A DNA stretch of 19,441 bases, taken from assembly GCA_964619725.1 (NCBI GenBank), contig CAZUFC010000141.1:1-19441 (forward strand), in the 5' to 3' direction. The notes under the pieces are model-generated. The model was not told the origin of the DNA and searched no databases. It worked only from the letters and a program-made list of their open reading frames with translations. Within the stretch, counting starts at the first letter, position 1; each line of letters opens with the position of its first letter. Source of the stretch: an uncultured bacterium. Lineage in GTDB: Bacteria > CSSED10-310 > CAZUFC01. Both the position numbers and the translations under genes were made by a program. Below, piece by piece: positions 2,158 through 16,028 of the stretch.

Positions 2158-3474
2158 ATGAAGCGGAAATATTTTGCATTTTACGCTATTCTGTCATTGA
2201 TCGGAATCATCTACAACGGCGACTCCAAAGCTGTATGGAATGATGAGGCCGTTGTGCAAAAAGGGAATCCAAACATCGTAATATTAGTAGTGGATACTTT
2301 GCGGGCCGACCATCTGCCCTTTTACGGATATACGCTCAAAACAACGCCGTTTCTCGCCAAGCTGGCTTCTCAGTCTATCATTTTCGATAATGCCTATTCC
2401 GCTTCTTCCTGGACCCCTCCCTCCACAGCTTCCATTTTTACTTCGCTTTATCCGTTTCAGCATAAAGTAGTCATGGCGCTTCAGGATTCCGTAGAAGTTA
2501 AAATAGCTTTAAACCGCATTCCGGAGCGTCTGGAGACTATCGCTGAATTTCTTAAAAAACAGGATTATAAGACCTATGCGGCAACGGATAATATCAACAT
2601 CTGCAAGGATGAAGGATTTGACCAGGGATTCGATATGTTCGTGAATCATGATTACGATACGGCGGAAGTCGTTAATGGTCATGTGAAAGAGTGGGCGGAG
2701 GACATAAAGAATCAGGAAAAATACTTTTTGTACCTGCACTATAACGACCCTCATCATCCTCTTAACAAACGCGAACCCTGGTACGAAAAGAAAGAGGACA
2801 GCAAGGAAAATTACATTTCAATGTATGACAGCGAAATCAGTTACGCTGATGCACATATATCTGAATTGTATGACTTACTCTCGTGGGATAAGAATACTCT
2901 TGTCATCTTTACGGCGGACCACGGCGAAGAGCTATGGGACCATGACGATATGGGACATGGCTACACGCTTTATAACGAAGTGACCCGGGTGCCTTTGTTC
3001 GTTTATTTTCCGGAAGATCAGCGAAAGACCGGCCGCATCCAACACAACGTGAGCACAATGGATATTTTTCCCACTATCCGGGCGTATCTGGGGCTTGAAC
3101 CGGACCCTGATCATGAAGGCGTTTCATTGCTGCCCTTAATGAAGAATCCCGAATCCGTGAAAAATGAAAGACATATATTTTCACACCTCGACCGCAAACA
3201 TAAAACCCGCGGCGATATGCTAGCCCGTTCAACGGTTTACAGGAACTGGAAATGGTATCGCATGGAACCTCATGAAGGAGCGTTGTTCAATCTGGAAAAT
3301 GACCCCGGTGAGAAAACCGATGTCTCAAAAGAAAACCCGGCAATAACCGCCGACCTGGCCGGCAAGTATAGGACTTTTGAAAAGAACTGCGTTAAATACG
3401 ACAGAGAAACAGTCGATTACTACCTGGATGAAAAAACCAAGGCGTCGCTAAGAGCGCTGGGTTATACTCAGTAG
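2158..3474 (+). CDS. Exported sulfatase-like hydrolase/transferase (alkaline phosphatase superfamily)
   Basis: N-terminal signal/anchor, then PNIVILVVDTLRADH, SSWTPPSTASIFTSLYP, YLHYNDPHHP, YDSEISYAD, TADHGEE, GHGYTLY, LFNLENDPGEK and C-terminal LRALGY. Confidence 0.9.
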   Translation: MKRKYFAFYAILSLIGIIYNGDSKAVWNDEAVVQKGNPNIVILVVDTLRADHLPFYGYTLKTTPFLAKLASQSIIFDNAYSASSWTPPSTASIFTSLYPFQHKVVMALQDSVEVKIALNRIPERLETIAEFLKKQDYKTYAATDNINICKDEGFDQGFDMFVNHDYDTAEVVNGHVKEWAEDIKNQEKYFLYLHYNDPHHPLNKREPWYEKKEDSKENYISMYDSEISYADAHISELYDLLSWDKNTLVIFTADHGEELWDHDDMGHGYTLYNEVTRVPLFVYFPEDQRKTGRIQHNVSTMDIFPTIRAYLGLEPDPDHEGVSLLPLMKNPESVKNERHIFSHLDRKHKTRGDMLARSTVYRNWKWYRMEPHEGALFNLENDPGEKTDVSKENPAITADLAGKYRTFEKNCVKYDRETVDYYLDEKTKASLRALGYTQ

Positions 3475-8160: not shown

Positions 8161-8820
8161 TCAACTTCCGCGTGATTGCAGCATGCCGACGGCTTCCGTC
8201 AGCAGATATTTCTTCATTTCCTGCAAATCAAAATCGATAAGCATCTGAGGCAAATCGGCCTGAGTTATTTTTTTCACCAACATTAACCTCTCAGGTATAA
8301 TAAAATCCAGTCCTTTGATTCCAAATCTCTGCTCAGTCTTCCTGATCAGCTCGATCAACCGCAGCTTTGAGCTGATAAGAATGAAATAAATATCTGTCAA
8401 ATCCTTGGGATCGTAACGGTCAGTCAGGGCGATGAGTTTACCCGTAACGATATTCAACAGGCTGTCCACTTCGAGTCGTCCAATTTTTTTCCTGTCCTGA
8501 AGGCTTTTGAAAGGATAAACCGTAAACTCCAGTTTTAGAACCTCTTTATCTGAAAAGATCAACTCAAATATACGGCGATCATAAAGTCGCTCAAAACGAA
8601 TATCCTCGACCCCTCCTTTTTTAAGCGCTCCTGTCAGATATTCTATGCGCGGCATCTTTTCATCCGAATCGGTAAAAAAATCAAGGTCCATAGACAGCCT
8701 GTGCTCCAGGTAAAAAGCCGAAAGAGCCGTACCGCCCGTCAAGTAAAAGTTGTTCATCAACAGATCGGGTAAATGACGGATAATAATCTTCTGCTTCTTA
8801 TTCAATATCCTGTTCTTCAC
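8161..8820 (-). CDS. AbiEii/AbiGii-family nucleotidyltransferase (type IV toxin-like)
   Basis: Signature FYLTGGTALSAFYLEHRLSMDLDFF plus K..AL.DR..PKDLTDIY. The GTG start at 8820 overlaps the upstream ORF; the exact start is uncertain. Confidence 0.9.
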   Translation of the reverse strand: MKNRILNKKQKIIIRHLPDLLMNNFYLTGGTALSAFYLEHRLSMDLDFFTDSDEKMPRIEYLTGALKKGGVEDIRFERLYDRRIFELIFSDKEVLKLEFTVYPFKSLQDRKKIGRLEVDSLLNIVTGKLIALTDRYDPKDLTDIYFILISSKLRLIELIRKTEQRFGIKGLDFIIPERLMLVKKITQADLPQMLIDFDLQEMKKYLLTEAVGMLQSRGS

Positions 8821-10189: not shown

Positions 10190-11581
10190 TCAAACGGCTG
10201 TCGAGACGCTTGAAAAGGTGAATTTGTCGATTCGCATGGGAGGCATAATCAGCCGCATCTGATAATAACGGATCAACCTCGGTTCGCCCAGCGCCTCGAT
10301 GTGATTCAAGGAAACCAGGGGACTTTCGTTGAACCGGAAATTACGGACAGGAGCGACGATCCTGCCGTTTTTGATCCGGAACGTTCCGTCTCTAGTCAGT
10401 CCCGTCAGGAGCATGGTATTCGGATCAACGAAACGTATATACCAGAGGTTTGAAACAAGAATGCCGTCATCGGTCGTCTTTATCAGCTCTTCCAGGGAAG
10501 CGTCTTCGCCTTCCATCAGAATCTGGCGGGGCAATCCGTATGGTTCTATGCCTTTTTTTACAGCCCAGTAATAAGGATAAAAAACGTTCTTGATATGTCC
10601 CTCTTTAATCAGGTAATTTTCCTTTACGGGAAGTCCTGAGCTGAAAAGATTAGCCGCAGCGCCCTGTCCCGCATCTCCGTCCAGGCTCAGAGCGGAACCG
10701 AAAGGCAGACCGGGATATCTCTCGTGCCCGACGATGCTCCGGAACGATGCCTTCTCGCTGAAAACCTTCTGATTGATGATGGAACTGCCGTTTTTATACC
10801 GGGAAAGAAAAGACCTGTTTTCGTCGATCTTCCTGGCATCGAAACCGAAAAACATAGGCGCCAGGAAATTGGCCGCTGCCTGTGAAGTCAATATGACCTT
10901 GTAATCGCCCGGTTCCAGAGTTTCAGGATCAGAAGTCTGCCTGGCGGTTTCCGCAGCCTGCTTCATCAGGAGCTCCGGTTCCAGGAATCGCGGACTGTAT
11001 TCAAATTGTTCCTCACGCGCGCTCCCGCGACCGTCCGGCGTCCTCATCGTCACGCTGTATCCCGTGTCCGTAAACCTGTGATACGCGAACAATCCGTTGC
11101 TGTTCATGACGCTGGTGAACGACAAATTATTCTGCACCGTTCCGAAAGCGTCCAAATGCATTTTTTCCGCATAAGAACAGGTTTCGCCGACTATTTCAGC
11201 TCGATGCTCCTCGTTGAATTTCTCCGCATCGCTGTCCCATCCCCTTACTTCCGGATACTTGCTCACGCTGACCGGCGGCAGATGCTCCCGGTTGACCGGC
11301 ATGAAACGGGCGTTCTTTACGCAGGAATTTACCGTCCTCTTTATCGATTCATCGTCGATTTTATTGATTGAAATGTAATTCTCGCGATTATTGACTGATA
11401 CGCCTATACGCAAATGTATGTTTTTCCTGATGACGTTCTGAGTCATCATATTTCTGGCGAAACGCGACAGCGCCTTTTCCGAACCGCTGAGTTCGACGGC
11501 CGCTTCGTCCGCTCCGGCCTGCAGCGCCGTCTTCAGCGTTTTCTCCAGAATATGTCCTGTTTCCGTTTGGTTCAATATCAT
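10190..11581 (-). CDS. tldE: TldE/PmbA family protein (non-catalytic subunit)
   Basis: SRFARN, LEPGDYKVIL and WYIRFVDP...LTGLTRDGTFRIKNGRIVAPVRNFRFNESP, with no HExxH. ATG 11581 overlaps the tldD stop (ATGA), so the longer 11713 start is unlikely. Confidence 0.88.
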   Translation of the reverse strand: MILNQTETGHILEKTLKTALQAGADEAAVELSGSEKALSRFARNMMTQNVIRKNIHLRIGVSVNNRENYISINKIDDESIKRTVNSCVKNARFMPVNREHLPPVSVSKYPEVRGWDSDAEKFNEEHRAEIVGETCSYAEKMHLDAFGTVQNNLSFTSVMNSNGLFAYHRFTDTGYSVTMRTPDGRGSAREEQFEYSPRFLEPELLMKQAAETARQTSDPETLEPGDYKVILTSQAAANFLAPMFFGFDARKIDENRSFLSRYKNGSSIINQKVFSEKASFRSIVGHERYPGLPFGSALSLDGDAGQGAAANLFSSGLPVKENYLIKEGHIKNVFYPYYWAVKKGIEPYGLPRQILMEGEDASLEELIKTTDDGILVSNLWYIRFVDPNTMLLTGLTRDGTFRIKNGRIVAPVRNFRFNESPLVSLNHIEALGEPRLIRYYQMRLIMPPMRIDKFTFSSVSTAV

Positions 11582-13038
11582 AATCTTGCACATCCTACCC
11601 TGACGTTTTTCACTCTCAACGGCGCGCTGCCGTGCGTCATTTGCGCCACCTGCGGCGGCTGACCTTTGCCGCAACTCGTTATGCCGTAGGGACGCCACTC
11701 TTCCTGTCCGCAAACCGCATCCACTGAACTCCAGAAATCCGGGTTATGCGACTGGTATACAGCGTTTCTGAGCATGCCCTGGACTTTTCCGTTCTCTATC
11801 ACCCGAACGGAATCCGCGCCGAACTGAAAATTTATCCTCTGCTGATCGATGCTGAAACTGGCCGTGCCGTCCATCAACAAAGCACGCTTCGTATCCTTGA
11901 TAAGCGTCTCCAAATCCGGCGCCCCATTCTTGCCGGCCCGGATGCATACGTTGGGCATACGAAGTATAGGCACCGAATTCCAGGAATCAGCGTAACTGCA
12001 GCCGCGGCTTTCACTTTCGCCGATAATATGAGCCGTATCCATGGTGGTGGAAAAGCCCGTCAGAATACCATCACTGATGATATCCCATTTTCCTGTTTTT
12101 ATGCCGTCATCGTCATAGGGAATGGACGACCGGCCGCAATTCAAAATCCGGTCCGCCGTCACATTGAAAATATCCGAACCGTAACGTAGCGATCCCAGCC
12201 CCTCAGGCCTGGCCCAACTCGTACCCGCGAAATCAGCTTCCCAGCCCAGAGAACGGTCCAGCTCCGTCGCATGCCCGATAGTTTCATGTATCACCAGGCA
12301 GGTATGACTGGGCAACAAAATCAAATCCATCGTATCTTCGGGACAGAAGGGAGCATTCAGCTTCTCCACCGCTTCCTTCCCGATCCTTTCCGCATTTTCA
12401 AGCATAGGCAGCTCTTCAATGTGCTCATATCCGCAGTTCAGCGGCGTATCGAAAAACGTCCGCTGCTCGAACCCGCCCGGTCCAGCCGCTGTGGCGGAAT
12501 ATCCCGCAAGACTCCTGATGAAGGACTGATCAATGTAACTGCCCAGAGTATCCGCAAAATATTTCCGGCAATGAGTAAACCCCATGCTCGCCGCAGTCCA
12601 GGTCACACCGGGAATCCCTCCAGACTTTTCATTAATCTTAAGAAGCAGCTCGATCTTCTCCTCCAGGGGCACTGTAAAGGGGTCCTTCTCATAAGACGCG
12701 GTCCAGGAATCGACGACAACGGGCTTGGAAACCAGACTCAGCTTATGTTTCATAAACCGGGATGCCGATTCGGCAGTGGAAACGGCCAACTCAACAGCGG
12801 ATGCAATATGAGTCTTATCGATATCATGACTGCTCGCAAATCCCCAGCAACCGTTCACCATCACCCGTACGCCGAATCCCAGCGATTCCACTTCAGAAAT
12901 AGACGTTACCAGTTGATTCCGAGCCGTAATCTTCTCATCCTTCTGACTCACGATACGTATGTCGCCGTAATTAACCCCGCGACGGCTCATCTCATCAACC
13001 GCAAATGCCAATAAGTCTCTCAACTTCATCTCCTCCAC
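11578..13038 (-). CDS. tldD: TldD family metalloprotease
   Basis: GFGVRV.VNG.WGFAS, catalytic IHETIGHATELDR, PILRMPNV, SFSIDQQRINFQFG and C-terminal CGKGQPPQ. Start is GTG 13038 or ATG 13029. Confidence 0.93.
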   Translation of the reverse strand: MEEMKLRDLLAFAVDEMSRRGVNYGDIRIVSQKDEKITARNQLVTSISEVESLGFGVRVMVNGCWGFASSHDIDKTHIASAVELAVSTAESASRFMKHKLSLVSKPVVVDSWTASYEKDPFTVPLEEKIELLLKINEKSGGIPGVTWTAASMGFTHCRKYFADTLGSYIDQSFIRSLAGYSATAAGPGGFEQRTFFDTPLNCGYEHIEELPMLENAERIGKEAVEKLNAPFCPEDTMDLILLPSHTCLVIHETIGHATELDRSLGWEADFAGTSWARPEGLGSLRYGSDIFNVTADRILNCGRSSIPYDDDGIKTGKWDIISDGILTGFSTTMDTAHIIGESESRGCSYADSWNSVPILRMPNVCIRAGKNGAPDLETLIKDTKRALLMDGTASFSIDQQRINFQFGADSVRVIENGKVQGMLRNAVYQSHNPDFWSSVDAVCGQEEWRPYGITSCGKGQPPQVAQMTHGSAPLRVKNVRVGCARL

Positions 13039-13162
13039 ATTATCAATGCCTTATCCACGTTCTTAACAACCGGAGCAACCTCCGGCAAAACTGAGTCTAG
13101 CGCTTTTTTTCCGCAATGCAAGTTTTGAGTATTTTGAATCACATGAGCGGCAGCGATTGTAA

Positions 13163-13186
13163 ATCGGGATCGGTATCGGAATCGGA
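13163..13186. repeat. (ATCGGN)4 hexamer repeat
   Basis: ATCGGG ATCGGT ATCGGA ATCGGA. The same hexamer occurs at about 9289-9312 and 8014-8025. Confidence 0.75.
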
Positions 13187-13285
13187 GGCGAAATTCCGGG
13201 GCGCCGTGCTGAATGAAGAAGTGAACGATATCTGGGGGATCAGGATTTGATTGAATTCGGTTCGGGGCTTTAATGATAAAGGGGA

Positions 13286-13337
13286 AAGGGACAAAGCGAC
13301 CAAGGGACCTAAGGGACCTAAAGGACAGAAGGGACAC
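13286..13337. repeat. Imperfect 8-9 bp purine-rich tandem repeat (AAGGGACNN), about 6 copies
   Basis: AAGGGACA AAGCGACC AAGGGACCT AAGGGACCT AAAGGACAG AAGGGACAC. Confidence 0.8.
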
Positions 13338-13412
13338 ATGGAATTAAAAAAATTTGTTTTAGCAAAAACCGGTATCTGAAAATTAACCGTCTCGCAGAAG
13401 AGACGAAATTTT

Positions 13413-13461: not shown

Positions 13462-13469
13462 AAAACCCC

Positions 13470-13652
13470 TAACCCGGATTTCTCATACAAAACCTGTTAC
13501 GAGCGTCCATACCCCCGCACCTTCAAGCGCTGCTCCCTACGGCCTTGCTCAACGTAGCGCTGCTATGTTTCCGCAGTCCTCCAGTCCGCTACGCTTGAAT
13601 TTGCGGGAATCTGGACGCTCTCACTAGGATTTTGTATGAGAAATCCGGGCTA
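13470..13652. mobile_element. MITE of about 180 bp with 20-bp perfect inverted repeats and TA at both boundaries
   Basis: CCCGGATTTCTCATACAAAA (13473-13492) and TTTTGTATGAGAAATCCGGG (13630-13649). Nested inner inverted repeats GAGCGTCCA/TGGACGCTC, CCCGCA/TGCGGG and TTCAAGCG/CGCTTGAA. No ORF. Confidence 0.8.
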
Positions 13653-13666
13653 ATCCGCTAAAAAAC

Positions 13667-13720
13667 AACCCAATCTTACTCCCCCTCTCCATTCATGGAG
13701 AGGGGGCCGGGGGGTGAGGT
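13667..13720. repeat. REP-like palindromic element, copy 2
   Basis: CCCCCTCTCCA-ttca-TGGAGAGGGGG-CCGGGGGGTGAGGT; 51/54 identical to 3712-3765. Confidence 0.9.
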
Positions 13721-13777
13721 CAACCCGCCGACAACAATCAAAACCGCAAAGATTTATACCGGCAGTTTTTCGCTGAT

Positions 13778-13871
13778 AAAAAATTGCCCTCCCTAGTGTG
13801 CTCCGTCAGCAGACGCAGCCTTTGAAGGCAGCGCTTCTCCTCACTCCGCACGCGGGGCAAGACAATTTTTT
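13778..13871. other. Long imperfect inverted repeat/hairpin just downstream of the collagen-FGE gene
   Basis: Outer arms AAAAAATTG (13778-13786) and CAATTTTTT (13863-13871) enclose a GC-rich core with the inner hairpin CGCAGCCT-ttga-AGGCAGCG. Confidence 0.55.
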
Positions 13872-13904
13872 AAAAGTGCAAAAGCGTAAAAGTATAAAGG
13901 GTAA

Positions 13905-16028
13905 TTAAAGCGTCCTCGCAGGGCGGATGCCGACATTGACGTAGCTGTCGTCGGGCGAGTAGCTGTACCGGCGAGCAGCACGACAGTACATCGCATCGTG
14001 GATGCAACTCCCGCCGCGGAGAATACGGAGCGAGCCTGAATCAGGTCCTGCAGGGTCCTCAACCGGTCCGCTTGGATAGCCGGCATAATAGTCCCAGCAC
14101 CATTCCAAGACATCACCATGCATATCATGCAATTCCCATGCGTTGGCCTGTTTCTGACCGACATCTTGCGTCTGGTTTCCAGAAGTGTATTTATACCACG
14201 CCAAAGGATCAAGATTAGAATCGTTGGTGCAGCCGGTATTATCCTGCCCGCTGTTGTAAGCCGTATCTGTTCCGGCCCTGCAAGCGTATTCCCACTCCGC
14301 TTCAGTGGGCAGCCTGTATCCATTCGCCGACTGGTCCCAGTATACCGTGCCGCCGGTGACAGGCGGCGTTCCGTCGAAGACCGTCGTATGAGTTTCATCC
14401 GTATAATAACAGGGCGTTAATCCCTCATTGATGGAAATATGATTACAGTAGATACAGGCATCATACCAGGTTATTTGCTCGACAGGTCTGTCGTCGCCAT
14501 TAAAATATGAGGGATTAGTCCCAAAAACATCCACCCATTGGGACTGGGTAACTTCCGTTTTCTGAATGATGAATCCTATGGTCAAGGTTACCGAATGCCG
14601 AAGTTCATCGCTTTCACGGCACATTTCGTCCGTCGGAGACCCCATCTGAAACGTTCCCGGTGGGCAATAAGTGAAATTATCCGGTATATTAACGATCATC
14701 AGGTAATCGCCGGTCCTGTAGACGGCTCCGAACGTCAGTCCGGCCGCCAGAGCTTCCGCATTATCCGCATATTCGGGAATATCTGTCAGTTGCAGTCGCG
14801 ACGTTGGACTATCCGTGCCGATACCCACTGAACCAGTGGTTTCGTCATAGTAGACTTCTGCGCCGGCAGGCGTTCCTTCGTCGTTGTAAATAAGCTGCCT
14901 GTTCGATCCGCCGGCAGGGCCTTCAGGACCGGTGGGTCCTTCGGCTCCCGTATCGCCCTTTGGGCCGGCTATGCCCGTATCGCCCCGGGGACCTTCCGGA
15001 CCGATGGGGCCTGTCGGACCTGTTTCGCCGACGGCGCCCGTATCGCCCTGTGGACCGACCGCTCCTGTAAAGCCTGCAGGACCGGTCGAACCTTCAGCGC
15101 CTGCCGGACCTGTTGGGCCGGCAACTCCCGTATCGCCCTGCGGGCCCATGATTCCTGTGTAACCGGTCGGGCCGGTCGGACCCGCAGCGCCGGTGTCTCC
15201 TTTCGGACCGACATATCCCGTATCGCCTGTGGGGCCTGTCGGACCGGCAGCGCCTGTCGCCCCCGTCGGACCGGTCGGACCGGTCTCCCCGGCAAGACCC
15301 ATAACGCCCGTTTCGCCTTGCCCTCCCATAGGACCTGTTTCGCCCATCATTCCCGTCGGACCCGTTAAACCCGTATCGCCCTTCGGACCAGCAACACCCG
15401 TATCGCCAGCAGGGCCGGTCGGGCCGGCAGGACCTTCAGCGCCGGTGGCTCCTGCAGGACCTTCCAGTCCCGTCGGATCGCCCACCCATTGGCCCGTCTC
15501 GTCTATTACCGTCGCAGCTTTGCCGGCGTAACCTACTATGCTTACGCTGCGGGGAGTGATGTCATTGTCGTATACATCCTCCGCCTGCAAGGCATAACCC
15601 GCACCCATTATTCGCTGATCGGGCGTCAGAAGCTGAAACCCGTTCACTCCGTCGGAAAACCACACCCGCAGATATGCCTCATCCGTTTCAAATACCGATG
15701 CCGGTATGGGCTCCATATTATCCATTCCATCCGCATCGCCCAGCATTACGTTATACAGCCCGTTCGTCACGGGCGTTTCCACTGCCGACTCAGGAAGATC
15801 GGGCTCTTTTCCGTCGTTGGTCCATAATATCTCACCCATACCGTCCACTATCGCAAACATGAAATATCCCGGCTCCGGTCCTGTCTCACCGTACGGCTCG
15901 CCGTTCACTTCCACCTTGCCCTGGTAGTTGATCATGCCCGGCGCCGCCTCGATTGACGATTGAAAAACAAGCGACAATACAATGAAAAATGACGTAACGG
16001 AAATACATAATACGAATGATCTCCTCAT
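13905..16028 (-). CDS. Secreted collagen-like fibre protein with C-terminal FGE-sulfatase (SUMF1-like, C-type lectin fold) domain
   Basis: Signal peptide, N-terminal '[10 protein letters not shown]...YLRVWFSDG...PDQRI..GYAL.A' domain, 63 G-X-Y triplets and a 'VGIGT.SP' fibre motif. The FGE-type motifs are [58 protein letters not shown] and RILRGGS...G.R.AR. GGGGAG lies upstream. Confidence 0.92.
14904..15470 (-). repeat. Collagen triple-helix repeat, 63 uninterrupted Gly-X-Y triplets
   Basis: Runs from GLE-GPA-GAT to GPE-GPA-GGS, 567 nt, rich in GPT, GDT and GET. Confidence 0.95.

Follow-up and report, generated by a model that had tools for sequence, protein, structure and literature searches.

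The stretch of DNA analyzed here (the window) is the complete contig C141, 19,441 nt long, from the genome assembly of an uncultured bacterium; other labels of this kind (C8, C9, C25, C26, C153, C168, C280 etc.) denote contigs of the same genome. The assembly comprises 9.17 Mb in 344 contigs with 37 N gaps, at 90.9% completeness and 6.5% contamination, and the phylum is represented by 14 genomes only. On its minus strand the window carries a gene for a 707-aa protein with a collagen stalk and a C-terminal domain of the formylglycine-generating enzyme (FGE)/C-type-lectin-like fold. The initial annotation had proposed that the tail of this gene is a candidate variable region (VR) of a diversity-generating retroelement (DGR). 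From the comparisons described below, the tail appears to be a genuine DGR-derived VR of a remote or orphan target, a kind already known, whose cognate template repeat (TR) was not found.

Collagen-stalked protein and its variable tail

The 707-aa protein begins with a hydrophobic N-terminus, which judged by eye is likely a signal peptide, and continues with an N-terminal region (~160 aa), a collagen stalk and the C-terminal FGE/C-type-lectin-like domain. The Gly-X-Y repeats that define bacterial collagen-like proteins are visible in the translation, and Pfam matches the stalk to PF01391 in four stretches (E 1.1e-26, best at residues 316-373). The C-terminal domain (residues 455-705) matches PF03781 with an E value of 6.7e-44. 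Among solved proteins the one closest to it is Treponema denticola variable protein 1 (TvpA; 2Y3C), which aligns to query residues 34-260 (of 264) with an E value of 3.7e-42; true catalytic FGEs match this domain at only ~1e-13. In an alignment to the FGE 6MUJ, His replaces the first Cys of the enzyme's C-x4-C and the second Cys is retained; the active-site cysteine pair, which we take to be catalytic in FGE, is thus incomplete in the window protein. A match to TvpA far above those to FGEs, together with His in place of Cys, suggests that the head belongs to the non-enzymatic, DGR-target type of this fold. As in DGR targets, the VR core is 3'-terminal within a C-type-lectin/FGE-type fold, ending two codons ahead of the stop (Table 1).

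The gene product is probably a secreted or surface protein in which a collagen stalk carries a TvpA-like head. If the head resembles TvpA and Mtd in this respect, its ligand-binding surface would be encoded by the last ~39 codons. A protein search with residues 540-707 gave E values of 1e-10 or lower for 7201 of 8000 scored candidates, the best non-self identity being 59-70%; no near-identical variant of these residues occurred among the 8000. In a full-text search for collagen-bearing DGR targets, PMC7517822 mentioned collagen only in the title of a cited reference.

Table 1. Features of the collagen-stalked gene and its 3' flank in the window
Feature	Position	Strand	Basis
CDS, 707 aa	13905..16028	-	ORF list and translation
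Collagen triple-helix (Gly-X-Y), residues ~189-375	14904..15464	-	Translation; boundaries by eye
FGE-sulfatase-family domain, TvpA type, residues 455-705	13914..14666	-	Pfam, genome scan, 2Y3C match
VR-type core, 39 codons, NNC/NNT-rich	13914..14030	-	Codon table; homologous tails on C168, C153
Stop codon TAA	13905..13907	-	Translation
Pyrimidine-rich tract, 33 nt, degenerate tandem octamer CCCTTTTAC array	13872..13904	-	Sequence, pattern scan
Imperfect palindrome, ~95 nt, A-run and T-run flanks	~13777..13871	-	Sequence, fold

The open reading frame (ORF) at 13905-16028 ends with exactly the tail codons that had been quoted for it. The 17 codons emphasized there do comprise 15 NNC and two NNT codons, but they were picked by hand, which makes 17/17 a post hoc figure. 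In an unbiased count, the last 42 codons include 22 NNC codons, whereas the remaining 665 include 179 (Fisher p 0.0012) and the 480 non-collagen codons among them 122 (p 0.00045). A contrast in tyrosine codons, with four TAC in the tail and three TAT directly upstream, is present as described but weak, since the remaining gene has 16 TAT and 15 TAC. Over a 45-codon tail the window copy has 23 NNC codons and confirmed DGR targets have 16-27; in the four confirmed-target VRs with a fully scored tail the counts are 19, 26, 27 and 27. FGE tails lacking a TR partner reach 23-27 of 45 in C155 (twice), C198, C8 and C226, and others have 7-18. These TR-less tails overlap the confirmed targets, so the NNC count alone does not discriminate. 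Two of them, C226:8138-8539 (27/45) and C198:4533-5294 (24/45), have neither a TR nor a paralog partner in the assembly and are possibly additional orphan VRs. The C226 tail is followed by CCTTGG-type repeats, which resemble those 3' of VR-like ends in loci L020 and L022.

A BLASTN comparison of the tail against the genome returned two paralogs with a common scaffold and 3' flank, as the initial annotation had suggested looking for. Both match the window tail and its flank without gaps, C168:603-823 at 78% over 221 nt and C153:3801-3987 at 75% over 187 nt. Within the 39-codon core, C168 and C153a differ at 17 bases, distributed 12/5/0 over the three codon positions, while in the 23 codons directly upstream they differ 11/9/12. 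Were the three positions equally changeable, finding no third-position difference in 17 would have a probability of (2/3)^17, or ~0.001. The variable codons align with AAC/AAT codons of the genome's real TRs, and at most of them the codon table shows a third position that is constant among the three copies. The position-1/2 pattern between C168 and C153a is the expected footprint of adenine mutagenesis, the DGR signature, and it is these paralogs outside the window that support the observation most strongly.

The identity of C168 to C153a is 75-83% over the gene and 97% in the 3' flank, with a perfect VR scaffold. For C141 and C168 it is 80-90% over the whole gene, 83-92% in the part of the FGE domain compared, 75-83% in the VR and 80-88% in the flank. 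The closest paralog, C168:628-2760 (locus L012), has the same architecture at ~85% DNA identity and perfect VR cis elements; a 1-nt insertion shifts its frame within the FGE domain, which makes this gene a pseudogene unless the insertion arose in assembly.

DGRs of the genome and the search for a template

The window itself contains no reverse transcriptase (RT), no avd and no TR, in agreement with what had been reported. RVT_1 matches occur at 12 places in the genome, none of them on C141, C168 or C153. Three complete DGRs (C280, C9 and C26) have adenine-biased TR/VR pairs and RTs with an IGNLTSQ motif, which we take to mark the DGR clade of RTs; DGR-clade RTs are thus present on these three contigs. 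TR/VR mismatches fall at one base in 19/21 cases for C280, 13/15 and 8/11 for C9, and 18/18 and 19/19 for C26. The C280 DGR (locus L028), on a 4.5-kb contig, has a TR that pairs with a local VR and with remote VRs on C324 (L027) and C25 (L024), the mismatches being at TR adenines in 19/21, 17/20 and 19/20 cases, respectively. Each of these three VRs is followed by a CCCTTTTAC octamer array. The TR/VR alignments show that trans-homing into remote FGE genes occurs in this genome, by the C280 DGR.

Two DGR-type RT remnants, C27:66660-67441 and C207:2-478, are both broken at interspersed repeats, indicating that DGRs decay in this genome. The C27 remnant keeps the IGNLTSQ motif, its N-terminal half being displaced by the insertion of a miniature inverted-repeat transposable element (MITE); a copy of the repeat family found at 13465-13660 in the window interrupts this RT. 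Only the C-terminal part remains of the C207 RT, which begins at a repeat at the contig start. No adenine-biased repeat was found near either fragment. The RTs on C78 (339-aa ORF) and C274 (506 aa) were rejected as DGR type because their translations are group II-intron-like, with a QGAVISPLLSN-type motif, and those on C247 (447 aa) and C66 (436 aa) were judged intron-like by ORF length and Pfam score only. Adenine-biased repeats were likewise not found near C78 or C192. As a marker of hidden cassettes, avd (PF05635) was of no use: among eight matches only a weak one on C280 lies within a DGR, and none is on C141, C168 or C153.

The search for a cognate TR was carried out with adenine-tolerant scans over both strands of all 344 contigs, with queries of 146 nt (the tail), 111 nt (the core) and 45 nt (seven sub-windows), and returned only the three VR copies. 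As a control, the adenine-tolerant scan recovered the TRs of four out of four VRs (C324, C25, C26a and C9a, with 17, 19, 22 and 10 adenine mismatches). The BLASTN check at word size 7 that had been proposed found the two paralogous tails and no TR. None of the three assembled TRs (C280, C9 and C26) qualifies as the donor: they do not align to the family, and in the case of C280 the mismatches occur at all four bases. Nothing matched in 40 other genomes searched at the DNA level. In public collections, an exact 20-mer of the C168/C153a VR end was found at seven metagenome and three genome loci, none of them a family TR; records of the same genome were possibly excluded from this search.

One further sequence was considered as a family TR. 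C8:48911-49030 is an AAC-rich, TR-like in-frame C-terminus of an FGE ORF, with a tail ending in NDADNVEVRNRNRNVAVNRNDNNGFRL, followed by a stretch that resembles the region after the C26 TR. This sequence is related to the C26 TR (74% identity) rather than to the C141 family, and no adenine-biased partner of it occurs among the matches listed.

Downstream flank and drift of the window copy

A pyrimidine tract and an imperfect palindrome follow the TAA of the window gene, as had been noted. The tract is an array of octamers at the position equivalent to the initiation of mutagenic homing (IMH) site, outside TR homology. A two-octamer pattern occurs at seven loci genome-wide, and five of these are directly 3' of DGR-type VR stops (C25, C153a, C168, C280 and C324); the array of the window copy is degenerate and fails this pattern. 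Arrays of this octamer thus stand 3' of all six VRs of two unrelated TR families, with the window copy alone degenerate, and are absent 3' of the C280 TR. One is also found 3' of a VR remnant in G011, a genome of the same phylum. Among the ten public loci, four have CTTTTAC-type arrays 3' of the VR-like end and two more have CCCTTG-type repeats.

The palindrome is present at four loci genome-wide, near-perfect after the C168, C153a and C153b genes and eroded in the window. Its DNA fold is -21.9 kcal/mol (z -2.4) in the window and -49.3 and -50.5 kcal/mol (z -11.3) in C168 and C153a, whose stems differ by a compensated pair; a simple terminator scan did not call it. The initial annotation had likened it to the hairpin that assists DGR target recognition, but it is not of the canonical type. 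Canonical DGR target hairpins have a GC stem of 7-10 bp and a GRNA tetraloop 4-34 bp after the VR (PMC3240598), while the window has a palindrome of ~95 nt with A/T runs, and an IMH with a short GC-rich inverted repeat and GRNA loop was not found 3' of the window VR. Inverted repeats are in any case not obligatory, since they were recorded in only 127 of 372 DGRs (PMC5758913). The same genome does have the canonical type behind its C9 and C26 DGR targets, where an 8-bp stem carries a GAAG loop.

We tentatively suggest that (CCCTTTTAC)n after the stop might be an IMH-type determinant of the recipient site for a cellular DGR clade acting on FGE-type domains, licensing dispersed genes for trans homing. 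In the C141 family it might act together with the long palindrome, and its erosion might retire targets to fixed-specificity lectins.

In the 39-codon core the window copy has 18 private bases at sites where C168 and C153a agree, distributed 6/4/8 by codon position. To the 12/5/0 differences between C168 and C153a the window copy thus adds private changes of its own, scaffold residues included. The GGSC and GIR motifs had been suspected of being atypical, and they are indeed private to the window copy: the Trp of GGSW became Cys (TGG to TGC) and the Phe of GFR became Ile (TTC to ATC), while the paralogs have GGGW and GFR. The private third-position changes are spread over the VR and come as close as 12 codons to the 3' end. 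Homing from the family TR would have reset the private changes.

Read-level data were Logan contigs of four runs (X1-X4) from one study; such contigs lose rare variants. In X1 a 503-nt contig with a depth of 8.8 spans 13720-14222 with 0 differences, and in X2 a 226-nt contig with a depth of 3.1 spans 13876-14101, also with 0 differences; X3 and X4 did not cover the VR. No differences fall in 13905-14033 among the 40 of 150 difference rows listed, and no VR hypervariation is visible in X1 and X2, each with one spanning contig at the depths given.

The spacer of 560 nt that follows the gene consists of repeat DNA throughout. At 13465-13660 lies an interspersed repeat of 196 nt, palindromic and MITE-like, with an RNA fold of -93 kcal/mol. 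BLAST finds it 140 times on 76 contigs, in 64 cases at nearly full length, and contig depth there is ~800 compared with ~9 for the gene. A second interspersed family at 13130-13340 (174 hits, 63 contigs) holds AAGGGAC heptamers in tandem (GTCCCTT when read on the opposite strand) as well as CGATACCGAT-type repeats, and a third lies at 13660-13760 (58 hits, 48 contigs). None of the neighboring genes in the window is DGR-related. They encode an AbiEii-family nucleotidyltransferase toxin (8161-8820, minus strand), a sulfatase (2158-3474, plus strand) and a PmbA/TldD pair (10190-13038, minus strand), in addition to an Exo_endo_phos nuclease, a DUF4397 protein, a methyltransferase and a GMC oxidoreductase.

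Origin and present state of the variable region

Our preferred reading, to which we assign a probability of about 0.55, is that the window VR is a DGR VR by descent which has dropped out of the homing cycle and now serves a lectin-like binder of fixed specificity. The ancestral gene of the family would have been a remote DGR target, its tip written by mutagenic retrohoming, and the NNC/NNT codons would derive from AAC/AAT template codons through the adenine-specific mutagenesis of that process. The family of three (C141, C168 and C153) has the VR scaffold, the 3' octamer array and the long palindrome in common, far from any RT, and neither its TR nor its RT is present in the assembly. Overwriting of the window copy may have ceased after the C141/C168 duplication (~15% DNA divergence), and ordinary substitutions would then have built up in scaffold, octamers and palindrome at about the rate of the rest of the gene, with the frame kept open. 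The present protein would be a collagen-stalked, probably trimeric binder. The fold family, the paralog pattern, the lack of a TR in the assembly, the trans-targeting by C280 and the erosion of the cis elements are shown, whereas past homing, present inactivity and the ligand-binding role are inferred. A frozen state is suggested by the private third-position and scaffold changes, the identity profiles of gene and flank, the degenerate octamers, the eroded palindrome, the identical VR in two samples and the decay of other DGRs in this genome. The original proposal that the gene is, or descends from, a DGR target served in trans therefore divides. Descent is supported by the TvpA-like fold, the position-1/2 variation of the paralogs, the three DGRs and the trans-targeting by C280, while service in trans finds no cognate TR and has the 18 private changes against it.

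Several observations weigh against retirement of the window copy. The read evidence for stasis is weak, coming from contigs only at depths of ~9 and ~3, and DGR activity is under-detected already at 20-50x coverage (PMC8144416). In one contig of X1, 13857 and 14091 are linked across letters that are not known; we take this contig for the C168 paralog, but it could be a window allele with a replaced VR. Across the three copies third positions are mostly kept at variable codons and have drifted in the scaffold, and a separate, diverged TR could yield the third-position pattern of the window copy. In published surveys some targets depart from their TR by as many as 11 non-A differences (PMC5758913), so nine or more such differences alone would not exclude homing. 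The window ORF is intact, yet it is C168, with perfect cis elements, that has the 1-nt insertion. Given the completeness, contig number and N gaps of this assembly, a TR of 130 nt could also be unassembled.

These points lead to the alternative of an active remote target, whose VR is still diversified in trans by a TR, and perhaps an RT, that went unassembled or unbinned. Such a target might have a TR of its own, or might use that of C168 and C153a with tolerated non-adenine differences. Besides the intact ORF, the retained third positions, the low coverage and the gapped assembly, this reading is favored by the C280 DGR, which trans-targets remote FGE genes in this very genome, by the C207 RT fragment, which lies at a contig start with the upstream TR region missing, and by a palindrome and tract that are still recognizable. 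Against it, no TR or TR fragment was found in 9.17 Mb although the controls were recovered, eight private third-position changes survive that homing from the family TR would have removed, erosion has affected the cis elements relative to those of the paralogs, and contigs of two samples show the same VR sequence. We consider continued activity tenable but less probable than retirement.

Another possibility is that no DGR was ever involved and the NNC-rich tail reflects codon bias, or diversifying selection with gene conversion among lectin heads. The unsuccessful TR scans, the hand-picked 17 codons and a tyrosine contrast that is not significant alone would all fit. So would the likeness of C168 and C153a, which at 97% reaches into a flank that homing does not copy, and recombination has evidently contributed there. 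Codon bias or conversion would nevertheless have to account for third-position differences of 0/17 in the core against 12/32 just upstream, for variable codons that line up with AAC/AAT codons of real TRs and for a fold that is the canonical one of DGR targets. The window NNC count of 23/45, though non-discriminating alone, also lies within the range of confirmed targets, and an origin without a DGR seems improbable to us. Least probable of all is a working FGE that matures the sulfatase at 2158-3474, as the Pfam FGE-sulfatase match (6.7e-44) and a PF00884 sulfatase ~10 kb off might suggest. True FGEs match far more weakly than TvpA (~1e-13 versus 3.7e-42), the first Cys of the presumably catalytic C-x4-C aligns to His, a collagen stalk with a hydrophobic N-terminus is no known enzyme architecture, and FGE-domain matches number 33 in this genome.

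DGR targets of this kind have precedents. Non-adjacent or remote targets were recorded in 45 of 372 DGRs, the Treponema DGR having seven such targets (PMC5758913). In T. denticola, as here, TvpA has a C-terminal FGE-type C-type-lectin fold with its VR at the very 3' end, and several paralogous targets are remote from the RT. There the TR is known and VRs differ at adenines only, whereas for the window no TR was found and the drift is of non-adenine type; the window protein also has a collagen stalk upstream of the head. Thiohalocapsa PB-PSB1 likewise has several DGRs, some broken by mobile elements, with some remote targets matching a TR elsewhere, others for which the reference offers no perfect TR match, and a single target without variation (PMC10907252). 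In that study deep and long-read data revealed intact variants of the broken loci (PMC10907252), in contrast to the contigs of four runs used here. Cyanobacterial "remote variable proteins" and "VP homologs" are similar in being dispersed C-type-lectin paralogs with the VR near the 3' terminus, some of them keeping TR homology and others being mere homologs (PMC7517822). They were classed by identity to a TR/VR of the same genome (PMC7517822), while the C141 family is wholly without a TR. At the Mtd site of Bordetella phage BPP-1, a GC-rich VR end, target-specific sequence and an inverted repeat past the stop recall the window (PMC3240598). The phage repeat has a short GC stem and a 4-nt GRNA loop, unlike the octamer array and ~95-nt palindrome with an 8-nt loop and terminator-like A/T runs found here.

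Surveys based on cassettes systematically miss remote and orphan DGR targets (PMC8144416), and each documented case therefore helps to size the hidden target repertoire. The present case leaves the known DGR mechanism unchanged. It adds a collagen-stalked, TvpA-like head, a collectin-like layout with a binding site that would have been written by a DGR, and it adds a candidate cis motif on the target side. One genome holds what appears to be a series, from a complete cassette and trans-served remote targets to a TR-less family and an eroded copy, and this within-genome series shows how DGR targets may be retired.

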